This document shows positions 2,734-40,994 of a stretch of DNA of 41,518 nt, one piece after another. The notes below the pieces were generated by a model, which ran no database searches, was not told the DNA's origin, and saw only the letters and a program-made list of their open reading frames with translations. This DNA comes from Octopus sinensis. Lineage: Eukaryota. Both the position numbers and the translations under genes were made by a program. The stretch's first letter is position 1; each line of letters begins with the position of its first letter. The stretch lies in assembly GCF_006345805.1 (NCBI RefSeq), contig NW_021835277.1:1-41518 (forward strand), given 5' to 3'.

Positions 2734-3368
2734 TTCTGGCTTTATGTTTTCCTCTTGGTAGTTTTCAGCACAATGTTCCTACAATCTGCTTCTTTTCCCT
2801 GACTGTAATTAAGAATACACAAAGTGAGCTTTCACTTGCCCAAGTTTATCATTCACATAAGCGGTAAGGAGAAATTATTGATTATGTGTGAAATAAATTG
2901 TTCAAGAAGAAAATATGATCTGAATACAAGAAATTAAATCCCCCACAGTATTTATGTTTTGTAGGTAGATCATTATCTTTATTGATTTACAACTATCTTG
3001 ATGAGTTGGAAGGTTTTGAATTTCAATAACTCTCCAGTTATCTCACTCTGTTTCTGCAAGTATCTCTTCTGATAAGTCAAATGTTTCCATTTCAGCTCTA
3101 ACTTACCTCCCTAGAGTAACATCTGAAATCTGAGAAAACTAATGATGGTCTACAATAGCCATATTTAATCTTTAGGAATTTGAAAAAGGGTTTGACAAGT
3201 TCAGCTGTCATAACCAAAGTGACTATACTATTTTCTACTGCTAAAGATGTTGACAATGACAGATGTAAAATAACTTTATTTCTCTCATATCAGATTCTTC
3301 TTGCCTTGCAGCAAGTGAAACTATCAAATAATCCTATAAATTCTCATATTTTCCTCTTTAAACTTTAA

Positions 3369-3588
3369 TACTCTTTTACTCTTTTACTTGTTTCAGTCAT
3401 TTGACTGCGGCCATGCTGGAGCACCGCCTTTAATCGAGCAACTCGACCCCGGGACTTATTCTTTGTAAGCCCAGTACTTATTCTATCGGTCTCTTTTGCC
3501 GAACCGCTAAGTTTCAGGGACATAAACACACCAGCATCGGTTGTCAAGCAATGCTAGGGGGACAAACACAGACACGCAAACATACACG

Positions 3589-3620
<32 letters not shown>

Positions 3621-3787
3621 CATATATACGACGGGCTTCTTTCAGTTTCCGTCTACCAAATCCACTCACAAGGCTTTGGTCGGCCCGAGGCTATAGTTAG
3701 TAGAAGACACTTGCCCAAGGTGCCATGCAGTGGGAGACTGAACCCAGAACCATGTGGTTGGTAAACAAGCTACTTTACCACACAGCC
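3369..3787 (-). mobile_element. tRNA-derived CORE-type SINE, family A (octopus OR-like)
   Basis: Reverse complement of the family A sequence (tRNA head with A/B boxes, ...ttgggcaagtgtctt..., central TA/TG microsatellite, tail ...gactgaaacaagtaaaagag). Confidence 0.85.
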
Positions 3788-4270: not shown

Positions 4271-4572
4271 AAGCAATTAGTCAGTGTCTCTTCAATCATA
4301 ATATAATCTATGATCTACAGCACGAGCATTATGCATGATGAGGGCAGCAAAAAACCAAAAAAAAACAAAAAGAAGCCCAAAAAAAAAACACCCCAAAAAA
4401 CAAAGAAAAACAATAAAATTACAATCATCAATCTTTTCTTTCGTATGTAGTGTTCATTGAAAAATCTACAAATGAAGCAAAGGTTTGAAACACTATCCGA
4501 AATTTGGCTGGGATATTCAGCGATGTAGTAGCAAAACAAACATGTGAAAAGGAGATAACGAGAAATGCATAC

Positions 4573-6091
4573 TTATTTCTTTATTACCCACAAGGGGCTA
4601 AACACAGAGGGGACAAACAAGGACAGACATAGGTATTAAGTCGATTACATCGACCCCAGTGCGAAACTGGTACTTAATTTATCGACCCCGAAAGGATGAA
4701 AGGCAAAGTCGACCTCGGCGGAATTTGAACTCACAACGTTGCGCCGGACGAAATACCTATTTCTTTATTACCCACAAGGGGCTAAACACAGAGGGGACAA
4801 ACAAGGACAGACATAGGTATTAAGTCGATTACATCGACCCCGGTGCGTAACTGGTACTTAATTTATCGACCCCGAAAGGATGAAAGGCAAAGTCGACCTC
4901 GGCGGAATTTGAACTCACAACGTAACGCAGACGAAATACCTATTTCTTTATTACCCACAAGGGGCTAAACACAGAGGGGACAAACAAGGACAGACATAGG
5001 TATTAAGTCGATTACATCGACCCCGGTGCGTAACTGGTACTTAATTTATCGACCCCGAAAGGATGAAAGGCAAAGTCGACCTCGGCGGAATTTGAACTCA
5101 GAACGTAACAACAGACGAAATACCTATTTCTTTACTACCCACAAGGGGCTAAACACAGAGAGGACAAACAAGGACAGACATAGGTATTAAGTCGATTACA
5201 TCGACCCCGGTGCGTAACTGGTACTTAATTTATCGACCCCGAAAGGATGAAAGGCAAAGTCGACCTCGGCGGAATTTGAACTCACAACGTAACGCAGACG
5301 AAATACCTATTTCTTTATTACCCACAAGGGGCTAAACACAGAGGGGACAAACAAGGACAGAAATAGGTATTAAGTCGATTACATCGACCCCGGTGCGTAA
5401 CTGGTACTTAATTTATCGACCCCGAAAGGATGAAAGGCAAAGTCTACCCTGGCGGAATTTGAACTCAGAACGTAACAACAGACGAAATACCTATTTCTTT
5501 ACTACCCACAAGGGGCTAAACACAGAGGGGACAAACAAGGACAGACCTAGGTATTAAGTCGATTACATCGACCCCGGTGCGTAACTGGTACTTAATTTAT
5601 CGACCCCGAAAGGATGAAAGGCAAAGTCGACCTCGGCGGAATTTGAACTCACAACGTAACGCAGACGAAATACCTATTTCTTTATTACCCACAAGGGGCT
5701 AAACACAGAGGGGACAAACAAGGACAGACATAGGTATTAAGTTGATTACATCGACCCCGGTGCGTAACTGGTACTTAATTTATCGACCCCGAAAGGATGA
5801 AAGGCAAAGTCGACCCTGGTGGAATTTGAACTCAGAACGTAACAACAGACGAAATACCTGTTTCTTTATTAGCCACAAGGGGCTAAACACAGAGGGGACA
5901 AACAAGGACAGACATAGGTATTAAGTCGTTTACATCGACCCCAGTGCGTAACTGGTACTTAATTTATCGACTCCGAAAGGATGAAAGACAAAGTCGACCT
6001 CGGCGGAATTTGAACTCACAACGTAACGCAGACGAAATACCGCTAAGCATTTCGCCTGGCGTGCTAACGTTTCTGCCAGCTCGCCGCCAAG
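4573..6091 (-). mobile_element. Octameric tRNA-derived SINE (family B, MetaSINE-like): one head plus 8 tandem 183/184-nt bodies
   Basis: Units at 4574-4757, 4758-4940, 4941-5124, 5125-5307, 5308-5491, 5492-5674, 5675-5858, 5859-6041; head 6042-6088; 13-bp direct repeat gagaaatgcatac at 4560-4572 and 6092-6104. The body motif gcctttcatcctttcggggtcgataaattaagtaccag resembles the MetaSINE central domain (recalled, not searched). Confidence 0.92.
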
Positions 6092-6104
6092 GAGAAATGC
6101 ATAC

Positions 6105-6191
6105 CTTGGGCAAGTCTCTTCTACCATAGACTGGAGCTGACCAAAGACTAGTGAGTGGATTCAGTAGATAAGAACTGAAAGAAGCCATTTG

Positions 6192-6915: not shown

Positions 6916-6965
<50 letters not shown>

Positions 6966-6990
6966 CATATATATACATACATATATATAT

Positions 6991-7380
6991 AGGCGCAGGA
7001 GTGGCTGTGTGGTAAGTAGCTTGCTAACCAGCCACATGGTTCCAGGTTCAGTCCCACTGCGTGGCATCTTAGGCAAGTGTCTTCTACTATAGCCTCGGGC
7101 CGACCAATGCCTTGTGAGTGGATTTAGTAGATGGAAACTGAAAGAAGCCTGTCGTATATATGTATATGTATGTATGTGTATGTGTGTGTGTGTTTGTACC
7201 CCTAGCATTGCTTGACAACCGATGCTGGTGTGTTTATGTCCCCGTCACTTAGCGGTTCAGCCAAAAAGACTGATAGAATAAGTACTAGGCTTACAAAGAA
7301 TAAGTCTTGGGGTCGATGTGTTCAACTAAAGGCAGTGCTCCAGCATGGCCACAGTCAAATGACTGAAACAAGTAAAAGAG
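6991..7380 (+). mobile_element. SINE family A, full length
   Basis: aggcgcaggagtggctgtgtggtaagtagc ... gactgaaacaagtaaaagag, set within TA-rich microsatellite. Confidence 0.9.
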
Positions 7381-8518: not shown

Positions 8519-8892
8519 ATTCATCAACCTATCTATTAACATCATCATTATCATCAACACCATCATTGTTTTAATGTCCACTTTTATATTCTTGCATGGG
8601 TCTGATGAATTTAATAGAGGTAGATATTCAGCAGCATCAAAACTCAACCATTTCCAAAGAAAATACCATTCCCCCATGGCCAAACATTTTTCAGGGAATT
8701 CCGGAAATGTGAGACATTTCTATGACCATGTTGCATGTTTACAAACATCATGTGATGTCAGAACAAGGGTAGACACAAACACTCCACAACATGCACACAT
8801 ATGTACAAGCACAGATATATATATATATATATATAATGATTACAGATTTAGGTAAAAAATTAGTAATTTAATAAAATTAACAAATTTCACCT

Positions 8893-9306
8893 AGGCGCAG
8901 GAGTGGCTGTGTGGTAAGTAGCTTGCTAACCAACCACATGGTTCCGGGTTCAGTCCCACTGCGTGGCATCTTGGGCAAGTGTCTTCTGCTATAGCCCCGG
9001 GCCGACCAATGCTTTGTGAGTGGATTTGGTAGACGGAAACTGAAAGAAGCCTGTCGTATATATGTATATATATATAAGTGTGTGTGTATATGTTTGTGTG
9101 TCTGTGTTTGTCCCCCTAGCATTGCTTGACAACCGATGCTGGTGTGTTTACGTCCCCGTCACTTAGCGGTTCGGCAAAAGAGACCGATAGAATAAGTACT
9201 GGGCTTACAAAGAATAAGTCCCGGGGTCAATTTGCTCGACTAAAGGCGGTGCTCCAGCATGGCCGCAGTCAAATGACTGAAACAAATAAAAGAAAGAGAA
9301 AGAGAG
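8893..9306 (+). mobile_element. SINE family A, full length
   Basis: Near-identical to the other young family A copies. Confidence 0.9.
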
Positions 9307-9739: not shown

Positions 9740-10185
9740 ACGTAAAGTATACTATCCATCTCAATATGGCTAACCACAAAGGGTGAGTGTTACTGTAGCT
9801 TTTAGCCCCAGGAGATCATCGTCTCCAGCTGGCTTTAAGCACGCTTTCTGTGCCCTTATGGTATTTGCTAAGGGAGGTCATCCCTCTCTCGTCAACCTGA
9901 GTGATACGCATGGACTGCAGTTTCTAGGTATTTGCCTGTCTTCGGCGTACGGCATTCGAAAACCGGTGATTGCCGTACGCCGAAGACAGGCAAATACCTA
10001 GAAACTGCAGTCCGTGTGTATCACTTAGGTTTACGAGAGAGGGATGACCTCCCTTTGCAAATACCATAAGGGCACAGAAAGTGTGTCTAAAGCCAGCTGG
10101 AGACGATGATCTCCTGGGACTAAAAGCTACAGTAACACCCACCCTTAGTGGTTAGCCATATTGAGATGGCTAGTATACTTCACGT
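9740..10185. repeat. Long palindrome/foldback: ~215-bp arms, 16-nt spacer
   Basis: Arms 9740-9954 and 9971-10185, about 13 mismatches by eye; explains the twin ORFs 9783..10001(+) and 9924..10142(-). Confidence 0.95.
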
Positions 10186-16039: not shown

Positions 16040-16432
16040 CAAATTTGGCTCAAAACCAGCAATTTTTAAGGGAGGGAGCAAGTCAATAACACTGATGGCA
16101 ATTCTTGATAGGTGTTTTATTTCATTAACCCCAAAATGTTGAAAGGCGAAGTTGACCTTGGTGGAATTTGAACTCAGAGAATAACGAGACAGACTTAATA
16201 CCTATTTCTTTACTACCCACAAGGGGCTAAACACAGAGGAGACAAACAAGGACAGACAAACGGATTAAGTCGATTATATTGACCCCCAGTCCGTAACTGG
16301 TACTTATTTAATCTACCCCGAAAGGATGAAAGGCAAAGTCGACCTCGGAGGAATTTGAACTCAGAACGTAACGGCAGACCAAATACGGCTACACATTTCA
16401 CCCAGTGTACTAACATCTCTGCCAGCTCGCCA
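16040..16432 (-). mobile_element. Young family B SINE (16203-16432) joined at the canonical junction to an older related SINE body (16040-16202)
   Basis: Minus strand ...gtaaagaaata|ggtattaagtctgtc...gagttcaaattccaccaaggtcaac; the second body is much more diverged and has a different 3' end. Confidence 0.75.
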
Positions 16433-17045: not shown

Positions 17046-17566
17046 ATGCTGAGCTAGGAATAAACACCAAGAATTGCTCATACAAACAGTGCCAAATACC
17101 CCCAGGAACTGTAAACTGGGCAAAAATCCACCACTACCACCACCACCACCTCTGCCATCATAAATAGAAAAAAAGGTAAAGCAAATGAAGTGAAATAGCA
17201 TCACACACACCACACACACACACACACACACACTATGTCGTTTGTATCATGATTGAAATTCAGGCTTAAGCAAGGCAAGTCTGCATGGCAGCCTAGCTTT
17301 GATTCTTAGTAATAACTGTCCCAGTTCCATTGCTTCTTCTTATAAAATAAAGCATAAACATAGAATAATCTCATTTCTATTGTCATATACAGTAAATATA
17401 TTAGAAATAAATATTTCCTTTAAATATCAGATTATTTATCAGATTATGGGGTACCGCTTATAATATCCCCCTTGCTACCTAATCCTGAACATGATGTATT
17501 TATCGTGTGAGTCATATTATATTCCTACCAATATGTATATTGTGTTGATTGCACCTGTTTAGTTTA

Positions 17567-17971
17567 CTCTCTTTTACTTTTACTTGTTTCAGTCATTTGA
17601 CTGCGGCCATGCTGGAGCACCGCCTTTAGTCGAGCAAATCGACCCCAGGACTTATTCTTTGTAAGCCCAGTACTTATTTTATCGGTCTCTTTTGCCGAAC
17701 CACTAAGTGACGGGGACGTAAACACACCAGCATCGGTTGTCAAGCAATGCTAGGGGAACAAACAAACTCACACAAACACACACACATACACATATATACA
17801 TATATACGACAGGCTTCTTTCAGTTTCCATCTACCAAATCCACTCACAAGGCATTGGTCGGCCCGGGGCTATAGCAGAAGACACTTGCCCAAGATGCCAC
17901 ACAGTGGGACTGAACCCGGAACCATGTGGTTGGTTAGCAAGCTACTTACCACACAGCCACTCCTGCGCCTA
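17567..17971 (-). mobile_element. SINE family A, full length
   Basis: 11-bp TSD tgtttagttta at 17556-17566 and 17972-17982. Confidence 0.92.
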
Positions 17972-18429
17972 TGTTTAGTTTAAGAACATTACTTGGATAA
18001 ATTAAATTCCTGTTTAAATTCTCTTATTGAACTGTAGTAGTTCAGGTCTTAGCATTAACAATACTTTTAACAGTCCTTTTAATTAACTATAATATTTAAT
18101 TAATTATCTGTCCAGATGATGTGTATCCCATGATGCTCCTATGTAAGAATCTACATAAAACTGCTTTCTCTAACATGACATTATGTATGTTGTACATTGA
18201 TCCTATTTCTCATCTAAAGCATCACTTAATATGCAAAATATTCTGCTCATATCTACACGGACATAAACTCCCACACGCATATACATAGACACGTAATTAT
18301 GCACCTATGTGCATGTGTATGTATGCTTGTTCATTCATATATATATGTGTATGTGTGTGATACATATGTATATATATATATATGTATGCACATATATACT
18401 GTATGCATGCATATTGTGTGTGTGTGTAT

Positions 18430-21234: not shown

Positions 21235-21552
21235 GTACTTATTCTATCGGTCTCTTTTTTGCCGAACGGCTAAGTTACAGGGACGTAAACACACCAGCAT
21301 CGGTTGTCAAGCAATGCTAGGGGGACAAACACAGACACACAAACATATACATACACATACATATATATACATATATACGACAGGCTTCTTTCAGTTTCCG
21401 TCTACCAAATCCACTCACAGGGCATTGGTTGGCCCGGGGCTATAGCAGAAGACACTTGCCCAAGATGCCACGCAGTGGGACTGAACCCGGAACCATGTGG
21501 TTGGTTAGCAAGCTACTTACCACACAGCCACTCCTATGCCTAGCCACTCCTG
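21235..21552 (-). mobile_element. SINE family A, 3'-truncated, tail-to-tail with the previous copy
   Basis: Reverse complement of 20805-21120; short head duplication agccactcct. Confidence 0.88.
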
Positions 21553-22115: not shown

Positions 22116-22468
22116 GAACGTGGCTGATGCCAGCGCCGCCCCGACTGGCTTCTGTGCCGGTGGCGCATAAAAAGCACCATCCGAACGTGGCCGTTGCCAG
22201 CGCCGCCTTGGCTGGCTTCCGTGCCGGTGGCACGTTAAAAGCTCCAACCGATTGTGGCCGGTGCCGGACCTCCCCTGGCACCTGTGCAGGTGGCACGTAA
22301 AAAGTACCCACTACACTCGCGGAGTGGTTGGCATTAGGAAGAGCATCCAGCTGTAGAAACTCTGCCAGATCAGACAGGAGCCTGGTGCAGCCCTTGGCTT
22401 CCCAGACCCCGTTCGAACCGTCCAACCCGTGCTAGCACGGAAAACGGACGTTAAACGATGATGACGAT
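22116..22468 (+). mobile_element. Family D element with three ~60-67-nt internal tandem units and RTE-like (GAT)n tail
   Basis: Units ~22116-22182, 22183-22249, 22250-22310, each ending gtgc(c/a)ggtggcRcRtaaaa-gcacc-like. Confidence 0.8.
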
Positions 22469-22749: not shown

Positions 22750-23091
22750 CCGTAGCCAGCACCGCATCGACTGGCCTCCATGCTGGTGGCACGTAACAAA
22801 CACCATCCGATCGTGGCCGTGCCAGCCCTGCCTGGCCTTCGTGCCGGTGGCACGTAAAACACACCATCTGAGCGTGGCCATTCGCCAGCCTCGTCTGGCA
22901 CCTGTGTCGGTGGCACATAAAAAGCACCCACTACACTCACGGAGTGGTTGGCATTAGGAAGGGCATCCAGCTGTAGAAACTCTGCTAGATCTGACTGGCC
23001 TGGTGCAGCCTTCGGGCTTCCCAGACCCCAGTTAAACCGTCCAACCCATGCTAGCATGGAAAACGGACGTTAAATGATGATGATGATGATG
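22750..23091 (+). mobile_element. Family D element with three internal tandem units
   Basis: Same organisation as 22116-22468. Confidence 0.8.
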
Positions 23092-23099
23092 GTGAATCC

Positions 23100-23255
23100 T
23101 TCTATCTGTTCAGGGTTATCCACTGTTCCTTTTCTTGTTTCTCTCTCATAATCCAGGCTATTAGTTTTTGTTTTTTGTTTTGTCCACCTATTGTTCCATA
23201 TCCTCTGGACATGTCCAGCCCAAATATGTTTCATTGATTTTAGAAATTTGAACAT
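23100..23255 (-). mobile_element. Short RTE-like LINE C-terminal fragment
   Basis: KHIWAGHVQRIWNNRWTK resembles the RTE motif WAGHVxRxxDNRWT. Confidence 0.6.
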
Positions 23256-23415
23256 GGCGCAGGAGTGGCTGTGTGGTAAGTAGCTTGTTTACCAGCCACA
23301 TGGTTCCGGGTTCAGTCCCACTGCGTGGCACCTTGGGCAAGTGTCTTCTGCTATAGCCTCGGGCCGACCAAAGCCTTGTGAGTGGATTTGGTAGACGGAA
23401 ACTGAAAGAAGCCCG

Positions 23416-23464
<49 letters not shown>

Positions 23465-23684
23465 CATGTATGTTTGCATGTCTGTGTTTGTTCCCCTAGC
23501 ATTGCTTGACAACCGATGCTGGTGTGTTTATGTCCCCGTTACTTAGCAGTTCGGCAAAAGAGACTGATAGAATAAGTACTGGGCTTACAAAAGAATAAGT
23601 CCCGGGGTTGAGTTGCTCGATTAAAGGCGGTGCTCCAGCATGGCCGCAGTCAAATGACTGAAACAAGTAAAAGAGTAAAAGAGT
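23256..23684 (+). mobile_element. SINE family A, full length
   Basis: Matches family A end to end. Confidence 0.9.
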
Positions 23685-26260: not shown

Positions 26261-26340
26261 TTTAAAATAAACAACTTCATCAAACTTTTGAAATTATGCG
26301 ATAATGCCTGATTAATTCAAAAACAATGTGAATAAATATA

Positions 26341-26512
26341 GGCGCAGGAGTGGCTGTGTGGTAAATAGCTTGCTAACCAACCATATGGTTCCGGGTTCAG
26401 TCCCACCGCGTGGCATCTTGGGCAAGTGTCTTCTTACTATAGCCCCGGGCCGGCCAATGCCTTGTGAGTGGATTTGGTAGACGGAAACTGAAAGAAGCCT
26501 GTCGTATATATG

Positions 26513-26549
<37 letters not shown>

Positions 26550-26760
26550 TTGTGTGTCTGTGTTTGTCCCCCTAGCATTGTTTGACAACCGATGCTGGTG
26601 TGTTTACATCCCTGTCACTTAGCGGTTCAGCAAAAGAGACCGATAGAATAAGTACTGGGCTTACAAAGAATAAGTCCCGGGGTCGATTTGCTCGACTAAA
26701 GGCGGTGCTCCAGCATGGCCACAGTCAAATGACTGAAACAAGTAAAAGAGTAAAGAGTAA
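26341..26760 (+). mobile_element. SINE family A, full length
   Basis: Matches family A end to end. Confidence 0.9.
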
Positions 26761-38657: not shown

Positions 38658-39050
38658 CATAGTGGTTATAATGTTGCGCTCATGAGCTTTGTTGATGATG
38701 ATGATGGTGGTGCTAACTTAAAATCTTTATGTAATAACCTTAGCCCTTGACTGGTACTTTATTTTATTGACCCTGAAAGCAAAAAAAAAAAAGTCAACCT
38801 TAGCAGGATTTGAGCTCAGGATGGAAGGGCAGCAACAAATACTGCAAAGCATTTCGTCTAAGAAAAATTAATGCATGAACAATTAATGCAAATATATAAT
38901 TATTGATAATTTGAATTCTTTTTTATAATAACAGCTTAGAAAACATCAAATCATGAAATTTATAAAATGGATTTTAAGCAAAAGAATAACAAAACAATAC
39001 AAAAAAACGAAAGTAGTTTTGTATAGAACTGAGTGTTTCATAATGTCTGA

Positions 39051-39474
39051 GGCGCAGGAGTGGCTGTGTGGTAAGTAGCTTGCTAACCAACCACATGGTT
39101 CCGGGTTCAGTCCCACTGCGTGGCATCTTGGGCAAGTGTCTTCTGCTATAGCCCCGGGCCGACCAATGCCTTGTGAGTGGATTTGGTAGACGGAAACTGA
39201 AAGAAGCCTGTCGTATATATGTATATATATATATATATATGCGTGTGTTTGTGTGTGTTTGTGTGTCTGTGTTTGTCCCCCTAGCATTGCTTGACAACCG
39301 ATGCTGGTGTGTTTACGTACCCGTCACTTAGCGGTTCGGCAAAAGAGACTGATAGAATAAGTACTGGGCTTACAAAGAATAAGTCCCGGGGTCGATTTGC
39401 TCGACTAAAAGCGGTGCTCCAGCATGGCCGCAGTCAAATGACTGAAACAAGTAAAAAAAAAAAAAAAAAAAAAA
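39051..39474 (+). mobile_element. SINE family A, ending in poly(A)
   Basis: Matches family A; an A-run replaces the usual aaagagt tail. Confidence 0.9.
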
Positions 39475-39928
39475 TTTGCCATTCTGAGTTTATGACACTC
39501 TGGGTATAGTCTTCAACATGAGTGACTACACATTAGCCATTCAATGGCTATCTTTTGAAACTGTATATATGGGGCTATGGTATTTTCTGACTTACAATTT
39601 GCATTGTCAGTCTGAAAATCTCTTGTTGTCCAGAATATCAATCTGCTGGAAAATGTCCTGAGATCTGCAATCACGCCGAATTCCCTCTGTTAGTCACTTT
39701 CTGAATTTCAAACGTCTTGCTTCTTTAGTTAGTGACATACTATAGTTTTGACATTTAGCAGTTGACTTAGTAGATGTCCACTAGATTATCTACCATCATT
39801 TTAACAACAACTTTAGCTACCTTTTTAAGTTCAATATCTCTAACACATATGGACAGGCTTCATCCTAATCATGATCATCATCATCATCATCATCACAATC
39901 ATGCAGGCATGGGTTAAATGGTATGACT

Positions 39929-40344
39929 GGCGGCGAACTGGCAGAATCGTTAGCATGCCGGACAAAATGCTGAGCGGTATTTCATCTGCCGCTATGTTCT
40001 GAGTTCAAATTCCGCCAAGGTCCACTTTGCCTTTCATCCTTTCGGGGGTCGATAAATTAGGTACCAGTTACGCACTGGGGTCGATTTAATCGACTTAATC
40101 CCTTTGTCTGTCCTTGTTTGTCCTCTCTGTGTTTAGCCCCTTGTGGGTAGTAAAGAAATAAGTATTTCGTCTGCCGCTACATTCTGAGTTTAAATTCTGC
40201 CAAGGTCCACTTTGCCTTTCATCCTTTTGGGGTCGATAAATTAAGTACCAGTTACACACTGGGGTCGATTTAATTGACTTAATCCCTTTGTCTGTCCTTG
40301 TTTGTCCTCTCTGTGTTTAGCCCCTTGTGGGTAGTAAAGAAATA
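39929..40344 (+). mobile_element. Family B SINE dimer inside a decayed minus-strand family D element
   Basis: One head plus two bodies, junction aaagaaata|agtatttcg at ~40160; direct repeat ggtatgactgg at 39920-39930 and 40345-40355. Confidence 0.9.
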
Positions 40345-40578
40345 GGTATGACTGGAGTTGGTAAACCGGAGATCTGCACCAGGCTCCAGTTATCTGTTTT
40401 GGCTTGGTTTCTATGGCTGGTTACCCTCACACCAACCATATTACAGAGTGTAGTGGGTGCTTTTTACCTGTCAGCAGCACATATGCCTTTTATGTGTCAC
40501 TGGTACTGGCCATGATCATGATTTCACGTAGTGTGATGTATCTTCTCAAGCACAGCAAATTACCAGAAGTGTTGGTCA

Positions 40579-40994
40579 AGGCGGCGAGCTGGCAGAATCG
40601 TTAGCACGCCAGGTGAAATGCTTAGTGGTATTTCGTCTGCCGTTACGTTCTGAGTTCAAATTCCACCGAGGTCGACTTTGCCTTTCATCCTTTCTGGGGT
40701 GATAAATTAAGTACCAGTTACACACTGGGGTCGATATAATCGACTTAATCCATTTGCCTGTCCTTGTTTGTCCTCTCTGTGTTTAGCCCCTTGTGGGTAG
40801 TAAAGAAATAGGTATTTCGTCTGCTGTTACGTTCTGAGTTCAAATTCCGCTGAGGTCGACTTTGCCTTTCATTCTTTCGGGGGCGATAAATTAAGTACCA
40901 GTTACGCACTGGGGCCAATGTAATCGACTTAATACTTTTGTCTGTCCTTGTCTGTCCCCTCTATGTTTAGCCCCTTGTAGGCAATAAAGAAAGA
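40579..40994 (+). mobile_element. Family B SINE dimer
   Basis: Junction aaagaaata|ggtatttcg at 40810/40811; 14-bp TSD agaagtgttggtca at 40565-40578 and 40995-41008. Confidence 0.9.

Follow-up and report, generated by a model that had tools for sequence, protein, structure and literature searches.

The retroposons that choose their targets, whether LINEs or the SINEs that depend on them, are known to insert into rDNA, snRNA genes, microsatellites and other transposons. In the crocodilians, SINEU-3 has inserted sequentially and in tandem at a single site of the transposon Mariner-N4, with Tx1-Mar, a Tx1 element, as its partner (Kojima 2015; PMC4494074). The octopus SINE described here resembles this system, as it is presented in that paper, in that its target preference would derive from a putative Tx1-type LINE, its target is another repeat, and its copies appear to have been laid down one after another at one site; however, the target of SINEU-3 is a Mariner transposon and its tandem copies are complete with a TSD between them, whereas the octopus SINE has its own head as target, and a single head remains with no internal TSD to be seen. 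The squamate satellites called sSats offer another parallel: like the octopus arrays, they are tandem repeats built from part of a SINE in which one terminal unit is longer than the rest, they fall in the 150-180-bp class, and they display an alternating dimeric pattern and later homogenization (Vassetzky et al. 2023; PMC10702118). In the account given there, the sSats arose through unequal recombination that duplicated the units, insertion at the same locus is only mentioned, and the sSats have a tendency toward subtelomeric positions (PMC10702118). What sets the octopus SINE apart from them is that about half of its dispersed loci are multimers, in which the joins fall at two exact sites, the ages form a gradient and nested intermediates occur. 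Rodent Dip and B2 SINEs also form multimers, which in the case of Dip in the jerboa reach eight copies; about half of the copies lie in multimers and insertion into another copy was considered (PMC8466645). The rodent units are arranged head to tail, possibly through insertion in the tail, and are described as full-length (PMC10702118), whereas in octopus the insertion falls inside the head and the downstream units are headless.

Two further systems bear on the mechanism. For R2, it has been proposed that the 5' end, being homologous to the upstream target, invades it and that the junction is resolved in this way, which provides a model for the loss of a head (PMC6895275). R2 is an autonomous RLE element of the 28S rDNA, whereas the octopus SINE is non-autonomous and is homologous to its target for the simple reason that the target is itself (PMC6895275 for R2). 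The non-LTR retrozymes of animals are, like the octopus arrays, short tandem non-coding units (PMC7229834, PMC4918200); the octopus SINE differs from them in that it has no hammerhead core but does have an apparently Pol III-type head, TSDs and a tail shared with a LINE.

Two of the SINEs known from octopus go by the names OK and Twelve. OR1 and OR2 are likewise named octopus SINEs (PMC4758252, PMC4824008). The literature that we searched (including PMC13282606, PMC4758252 and PMC4824008), in the parts of these sources that were covered, described neither a SINE that targets its own head nor multimers of the present kind; the octopus genome paper, the 1994 octopus SINE paper, repeat-database entries and supplements lay outside this search, and an existing annotation may have been missed. 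Here, we analyze one such multimer, found in a 41,518-nt stretch of Octopus sinensis DNA (assembly GCF_006345805.1, contig NW_021835277.1; hereafter the window). It lies on the minus strand and consists of one SINE head followed by eight bodies of 183 or 184 nt that extend down to position 4574. Its parts, and three other multimers of the same family in the window, are the following:

6092..6104, minus strand: 5' TSD copy, 13 bp, exact, beginning with the family's preferred GTAT target motif.
6042..6088, minus strand: single SINE head, positions 1-47, comprising the loop of the head hairpin together with its 5' arm and carrying the second target site AGAAACG at +15.
5859..6041, minus strand: body 1, 183 nt, with the odd haplotype, which in the young subfamily is found right behind a head more often than any other; its first base, G6041, is the target base at +48.
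5675..5858, minus strand: body 2, 184 nt, even haplotype.
5492..5674, minus strand: body 3, 183 nt, odd haplotype.
5308..5491, minus strand: body 4, 184 nt, even haplotype, with a 2-nt variant common to body 2.
5125..5307, minus strand: body 5, 183 nt, odd haplotype, with a tail variant common to body 3.
4941..5124, minus strand: body 6, 184 nt, even haplotype.
4758..4940, minus strand: body 7, 183 nt, odd haplotype.
4574..4757, minus strand: body 8, 184 nt, third 5' haplotype, the putative founding copy, whose tail adjoins the TSD.
4560..4572, minus strand: 3' TSD copy.
39928..40344, plus strand: head and 2 bodies of the same family with the same +48 junction; TSD starts GGTAT.
40577..40994, plus strand: head and 2 bodies of the same family with the same +48 junction; TSD starts AGAAG.
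16117..16431, minus strand: head and body, then at +48 an older partial body, which is more diverged (74% vs 87% identity to the query).

The initial annotation had described one head and eight headless bodies within one 13-bp TSD, and this anatomy is borne out: the direct repeat 4560-4572 / 6092-6104 is exact and, when extended to 4557-4573 / 6089-6105, becomes a 17-bp TSD with 2 mismatches (15/17) that adjoins the head. The bodies start at 6041, 5858, 5674, 5491, 5307, 5124, 4940 and 4757, a spacing of 183 or 184 nt, and TRF reports a period of 184 with 8.0 copies (score 2700), a 367-nt period being a slightly better fit (97% vs 95%). The same annotation held that every repeat joins the SINE 3' end to one internal base, and rightly so; in all seven internal joins the tail is followed by GGTATTTCGTC, at head position +48, with a single tail that reads GAAACA in place of GAAATA. 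The units differ from each other at 2-13 positions, and their 5' haplotypes alternate, bodies 1, 3, 5 and 7 having one, bodies 2, 4 and 6 another, and body 8 a third. All eight belong to one young subfamily of the family that we call A, and the longest T-run in each of them is 3 (there is no T4). The unit number and the variants of the array could in part be assembly artefacts.

The window is rich in other repeats. Another SINE-like family, abundant and dispersed and marked by an internal (TA)n/(TG)n tract, is present at 6965-7366, 8867-9280, 23229-23660, 26315-26736 and 39024-39445, with inverted copies near 3361-3624, 17563-17981 and 21320-21543; a truncated copy of it begins directly beside the array, at about 6102. 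There is also a near-perfect inverted repeat at 9740-10185 (218-nt arms, 94% complementary, 10-nt spacer), and GC-rich tandem units of 61-67 bp at 22116-22265 and 22771-22928 represent a further repeat family.

The structure of the array proved to be a very common one. When the 2.72-Gb genome was searched with sequence patterns, an exact 23-mer spanning the join had 6,726 matches, versus 0 for the reversed control, and a looser join pattern with a free gap of 10-40 nt had 31,256; among 100 loose-join matches listed, 90 had the standard spacing, 6 a 6-nt duplication of the tail and 4 small indels. Three successive joins were matched 3,645 times and an exact 24-mer of the head 17,783 times. Individual loci were parsed in a 1.46-Mb sample composed of three 200-kb blocks taken regardless of content, pattern-chosen loci and the window. 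They fall into two families with a common head and core: family A, which has the array's tail, and an older family B, which has another. The family A monomer is 231 nt long, and it has the attributes of a SINE: it is a short, non-coding, dispersed repeat of high copy number, it has TSDs of variable length, and its 3' tail is common to a LINE. As in the sSats, the array is a tandem repeat of part of this SINE with a longer terminal unit.

The parsed sample contains 511 core-bearing loci, 152 of them in the unselected 600 kb. Among the 511, a headless core follows tail A in 444 cases, of which 394 have zero gap and 22 the 6-nt tail duplication, and it follows tail B in 4, never at the fixed site. 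Tail A leads into a head 29 times, and 22 of these junctions are at +15, a second fixed site whose join has 1,340 exact matches in the genome. A fixed junction is supported at +48, but +48 is not the sole fixed site. The unselected 600 kb contain 85 complete A tails, of which 37 run into +48, 6 into +15 and 42 into other sequence, and 28 of the 58 A loci there carry a join. The tail-duplication variant of the join is fixed over a 15-unit array at G000:C1:171833000-171839000 (L250). At another locus (L395, G000:C3:20445000-20454900) two complete young monomers stand in tandem with head and TSD repeated, at a period of about 275; this is another route to a dimer.

The target preference of family A can be read from its TSDs. 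A TSD was recognized in 35 of the 53 A monomers and in 44 of the 78 multimers ending in A, compared with one of 400 shuffled pairs. Mostly 13-18 bp long, the TSDs begin in both copies with N-R-T-A-T. The SINE's own head has GGTAT at +48, and the +15 site is AGAAAC. The preference is sharper in the array's young subfamily, where GGTA follows the tail in 15 of 23 terminal copies, versus 26 of 150 other A copies. The motif alone cannot account for the targeting bias: the 102 SINE sites in the 600 kb make up 12% of its 855 GGTAT sites and 0.4% of its 24,740 [GAT][GA]TAT sites, yet of the founding and nesting insertions, 70 at the most, 28 fell on them (28 joined loci and 42 other ends). An RNA-templated GGTATT extension that overwrites the 3' TSD copy was also considered, but the counts (10 vs 7, p=0.63) were not significant. 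Mismatches are commoner in the outer TSDs of A-ended multimers (23/343) than in the TSDs of A monomers (5/283; p=0.003); the former are older.

Direct traces of insertion into an older copy are provided by loci with two heads. A pattern of head, GGTATTTC, short spacer and second head had 89 matches in the genome, of which 30 were taken; 7 overlapping ones were dropped, 5 could not be parsed and 18 were analyzed. At 11 of these, the sequence behind the downstream tail begins like the spacer that separates the heads, in 10 cases with non-consensus bases in common, and two of the five unparsed loci have the same spacer match. At six loci the downstream old core stands at 78-82%, versus 92-98% for the inserted core. 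The remaining seven comprise three multi-head repeats and four loci without a matching downstream body. At one locus (L311), three A bodies lie within one internal TSD. The double-headed loci with an internal TSD are products of ordinary TPRT, with position +48 of an older copy as the insertion site. Their rarity, 89 matches versus 31,256 joins, implies that a step of head loss would need to be nearly complete.

Remnants of the old head would be expected to betray such a step, and they are partly present. A B-type base at +19 occurs in 6 of 14 arrays that end in an old B unit versus 10 of 70 A monomers (p=0.02); at +36 the corresponding values, 2 of 14 and 5 of 70, do not differ significantly, and of the 22 arrays that end in the B1 subtype only 5 have the B-type base. 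We regard the loss of the second head as likely. The notion that the old target always donates its whole head and the first 15 nt can be discarded, given that in most A-B arrays both the head and the start are of the A type. A long-TSD origin of first units that bear deletions was rejected as well, the sequence being common to the next unit in only 1 of 5 cases. Some loci have multi-head repeats, in which a 65-76-bp unit of head and internal TSD occurs 2-10 times before one body (L294-L301, L320, G000:C3430, C18:40399000, C4:103048000); an identical multi-head spacer recurs at several of these loci and may mark a multi-head subfamily.

The +15 site is not the preserve of the SINE. One +15 locus is occupied by a different element, about 1.75 kb long and without ORF2, whose ORF1 has a zinc knuckle (Pfam zf-CCHC, E=0.026, below the cut-off). 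This ORF1-only element, which we take to be HAL1-like, has 99 tail matches, occurs in tandem arrays and has in common with the SINE only about 38 terminal nucleotides of the tail, 84% identical. The arrays contain up to 8-9 copies with a short TSD between them, mostly in SINE heads at +15 (L277, L351-L394, L398; for example G000:C2:193349000-193363000 and C6:70544000-70559000). At all six of their outer 5' ends seen, the flanking sequence is the beginning of a SINE head, and an 8-11-bp TSD is kept. Their terminal 3' flank is SINE +15 at 9 of 21 ends, which exceeds the 20% of flanks in one repeat type set as a criterion in the study of SINEU-3 (PMC4494074). As +15 is used by elements that have only the tail in common, the targeting follows the tail and its machinery, not homology of the SINE body. 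An incoming element without head homology would leave its duplication in place, whereas with head homology a single head would remain.

A candidate for this machinery was sought at four ORF1-related loci; three are of the ORF1 type only and one has an adjacent ORF2. The candidate itself is the element upstream of an ORF1-only array, a frameshifted full LINE (L401, G000:C6:45211400-45217400, minus strand) that has the SINE-A tail motif, is inserted at SINE +15 and has the same flanks as the ORF1-only element. It comprises ORF1 and ORF2, with Exo_endo_phos (an APE endonuclease) and zf-RVT domains, and a related ORF2 copy (L405) has RVT_1 and Exo_endo_phos, with L1 ORF2p as the closest solved structure (E 2e-34, vs R2 1e-21). 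From its motifs, the LINE presumably belongs to Tx1; a clade name appeared on none of the 120 RT homologues listed. The full LINE was seen in one copy at +15 and in none at +48. An L1/Tx1-type LINE with APE endonuclease, RT and zf-RVT, which has the SINE's tail and occurs at +15, is the likely motor and would be the partner of the SINE.

The units of one array have different sources and ages. In the 22 arrays that end in B1, the last unit is 6.5% changed versus 3.0% for the first A unit; the last exceeds the first in 20 of them and falls below it in 1, at CpG and non-CpG sites alike. In arrays that end in other B types the values are 9.8% and 4.0%, the last being higher in 12 of 14. The loci had been picked by their conserved joins, a selection that acts against such a gap. 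The A-ended arrays have only a small age gap (4.3 vs 3.8%, 83 arrays, p=0.03), and the A-A dimers have no significant one (p=0.22). The first and last units are at least 4% apart in 76 of 80 A-ended arrays, and the distance within dimers, 9.2%, approaches that between loci, 10.7%. The haplotype pairs differ in all 40 of 40 dimers; the link between first- and second-unit subfamily across them is weak (r=0.12, p=0.0065), and some multimers may accordingly have moved whole. Among the 20 arrays of at least 5 A units, distances between neighbors range from 1.0 to 9.6%, several long arrays being homogeneous at 1-2%.

Other features point to growth within the DNA. In arrays of at least 3 units, the private changes that the first pair have in common lie mostly toward the tail (38% vs 20-27%), and those of the last pair mostly in the 5' part (48-49% vs 8%); we read this pattern as the mark of duplication out of phase. 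Pol III should stop at T-runs of at least 5, and in 6 of 83 arrays of at least 3 units such runs are repeated between units. Growth of the array after insertion, which had been put forward initially as a fallback, thus gains support from the sharing patterns, the repeated T-runs and the odd/even alternation.

We consider it probable that the array arose by target-biased insertion of the SINE into its own head, likely followed by collapse of the second head and then, also likely, by expansion at the DNA level. At the level of the family, the A copies have TSDs that start with N-R-T-A-T, and their own head has GGTAT at +48. New copies do insert at +48, and less often at AGAAAC at +15, in older copies of the same or the sister SINE, and the rare loci with a head, an internal TSD, a new full copy and an old body attest to this event at +48. 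The end of the cDNA would then usually pair with the homologous old head, in the way proposed for R2 5' ends; alternatively, the 60-bp head repeat would collapse later, and in either case one head would be left inside the old outer TSD. Finally, unequal exchange or slippage, as the sharing patterns suggest, would multiply the units. At the present array, an odd/even pair would have been repeated about three times ahead of the founding body 8.

Several other explanations must be weighed against this one. Reverse transcriptase might stall at the head hairpin (+48) and jump, through GGUAU microhomology, to the 3' terminus of a SINE RNA, either the same molecule or another, so that a head and n bodies were inserted at once. 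Such template jumping has been described for L1 ORF2p, which produces concatemers in vitro (PMC10830420), and it would yield one head, a fixed join and a single TSD without any collapse step; moreover, all eight units of the array belong to one young and strongly GGTA-flanked subfamily, and the three bodies within one internal TSD at L311 are what it would produce. Yet it predicts units of equal age, and the terminal B units are about twice as mutated; the TSDs of multimers are older than those of monomers, the strict odd/even alternation is unexpected, and both the internal TSDs at double-head loci and the unrelated elements at +15 go unexplained. We therefore judge it unlikely. An origin purely at the DNA level, in which slippage between the GGTAT at +48 and that at the start of the 3' TSD duplicates the body and the array then expands, is improbable. 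It agrees with an array TSD that begins (G/A)GTAT, with the long arrays whose neighbors differ by 1-2%, and with the approximately 20% of mutations in the 5' two thirds that are common to the two units of A-A dimers; but it cannot make the 36 A-B hybrid arrays, it is at odds with the large distances between first and last units and within dimers, and the array contains three different 5' haplotypes, of which two have exact matches elsewhere and one a near match. Multimers may also be mobilized as such, as Alu retrotransposes as a dimer. A few multimeric master loci, read through by Pol III and retrotransposed as dimers to octamers, would fit the lack of any T-run above 3 in the eight units, the weak haplotype linkage between dimer halves, the prevalence of one subtype among terminal B units (B1 in 22 of 36) and the multi-head spacer that is identical at several loci. 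Against such masters stand the different haplotype pairs in all 40 dimers and the unequal ages within arrays, and the origin of the join is left unexplained, so that we hold this route to be very improbable.

The initial annotation had favored a transcript that is cut in the head loop, after which the body, a circle of about 184 nt, is reverse transcribed for several rounds. Here the structural premise is sound: G48, the join base, closes the 4-nt loop at the apex of a long head hairpin that is more stable than chance (z = -3.58; 0 of 200 shuffles equally stable). The further equation of this loop with a tRNA anticodon loop is not supported; ARAGORN found no tRNA anywhere in the window, Rfam at E<=10 matched neither a tRNA nor a self-cleaving ribozyme over the array, and the best alignment of the head to the genome's own tRNAs, a weak one to tRNA-Cys (z ~4, top of 27 distinct genes), places +48 on the GG of the D-loop. 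The head does have a conserved B-box-like GAGTTCAAATTCC. A cluster of at least 7 tRNA-Cys genes within 3 kb, one of them with an ACA anticodon, was noticed at L337 (G000:C12:22959503-22962574). A circle would account for the fixed join at the edge of a strong hairpin loop and for the homogeneous long arrays; the SINE tail and the start of the body can form a 5-bp stem, and circular RNAs have been described for the retrozymes of animals, which are tandem elements (PMC7229834, PMC4918200). On the other hand, a body-only circle cannot supply the head with which most arrays start. A retrozyme array would be expected to have equivalent units without a distinct promoter head, but 348 of the 511 core-bearing loci begin with a head, and the units differ in family, source and age. 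There are two fixed joins, one of which (+15) is used by non-homologous elements, and double-headed intermediates with internal TSDs exist. The unit was already thought to contain no ribozyme motif, and indeed the hammerhead core CUGANGA (CTGANGA) is absent from both of its strands. For these reasons the circle is hardly credible as the source of the array; nor is it necessary, insofar as self-insertion, head loss and growth within the DNA suffice. Circular RNA may possibly occur as a minor by-product.

Returning to self-insertion, we can attempt to trace the history of this particular locus. The odd haplotype is the commonest behind the head (14 loci), and a 29-mer of the even haplotype has 331 exact matches in the genome. 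The corresponding 29-mer of body 8 occurs once in the genome, which precludes a widespread subfamily, and has one near relative in the parsed sample. Apart from the haplotype with 331 matches, the other two are seen behind a head elsewhere, one as an exact and one as a near match. In the simplest history, body 8 would be the founder, two or more nested insertions would have followed, and the odd/even pair would have been repeated about three times. As all eight units come from one young subfamily, this history is tentative in the order and number of its insertions, and a one-step origin by template jumping is less improbable at this locus than for the family.

A bolder interpretation is that the SINE is part of a self-homing system, in which the machinery of the partner LINE, steered in part by the few nucleotides downstream of the tail in the source RNA, is aimed at the SINE promoter region. 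We advance this only tentatively and think it rather doubtful. If it were true, each nested source copy would pass on a guide for the same site, and self-nesting would be a main route of amplification (about half of the loci) and a genome-wide nursery of SINE-derived satellites.

SINE targeting through a Tx1 partner and satellites made of SINEs were known already; what appears new, in the light of the literature that we searched, is the target-biased mobilization of a SINE onto its own head and its self-nesting at two exact sites. If our interpretation is correct, this is a retroposon whose safe harbor is itself, with tens of thousands of joins. The path from a dispersed SINE to a satellite can be traced through intermediates within one genome, and the family offers a natural large-scale test of the homology-driven formation of 5' junctions proposed for R2. 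The subfamily-specific target motifs hint at RNA-DNA pairing in the choice of target. A TSD around a multimer is no proof of a single insertion, and if multimers are counted as single events, then the copy counts, ages and insertion markers of this dominant SINE will be biased.
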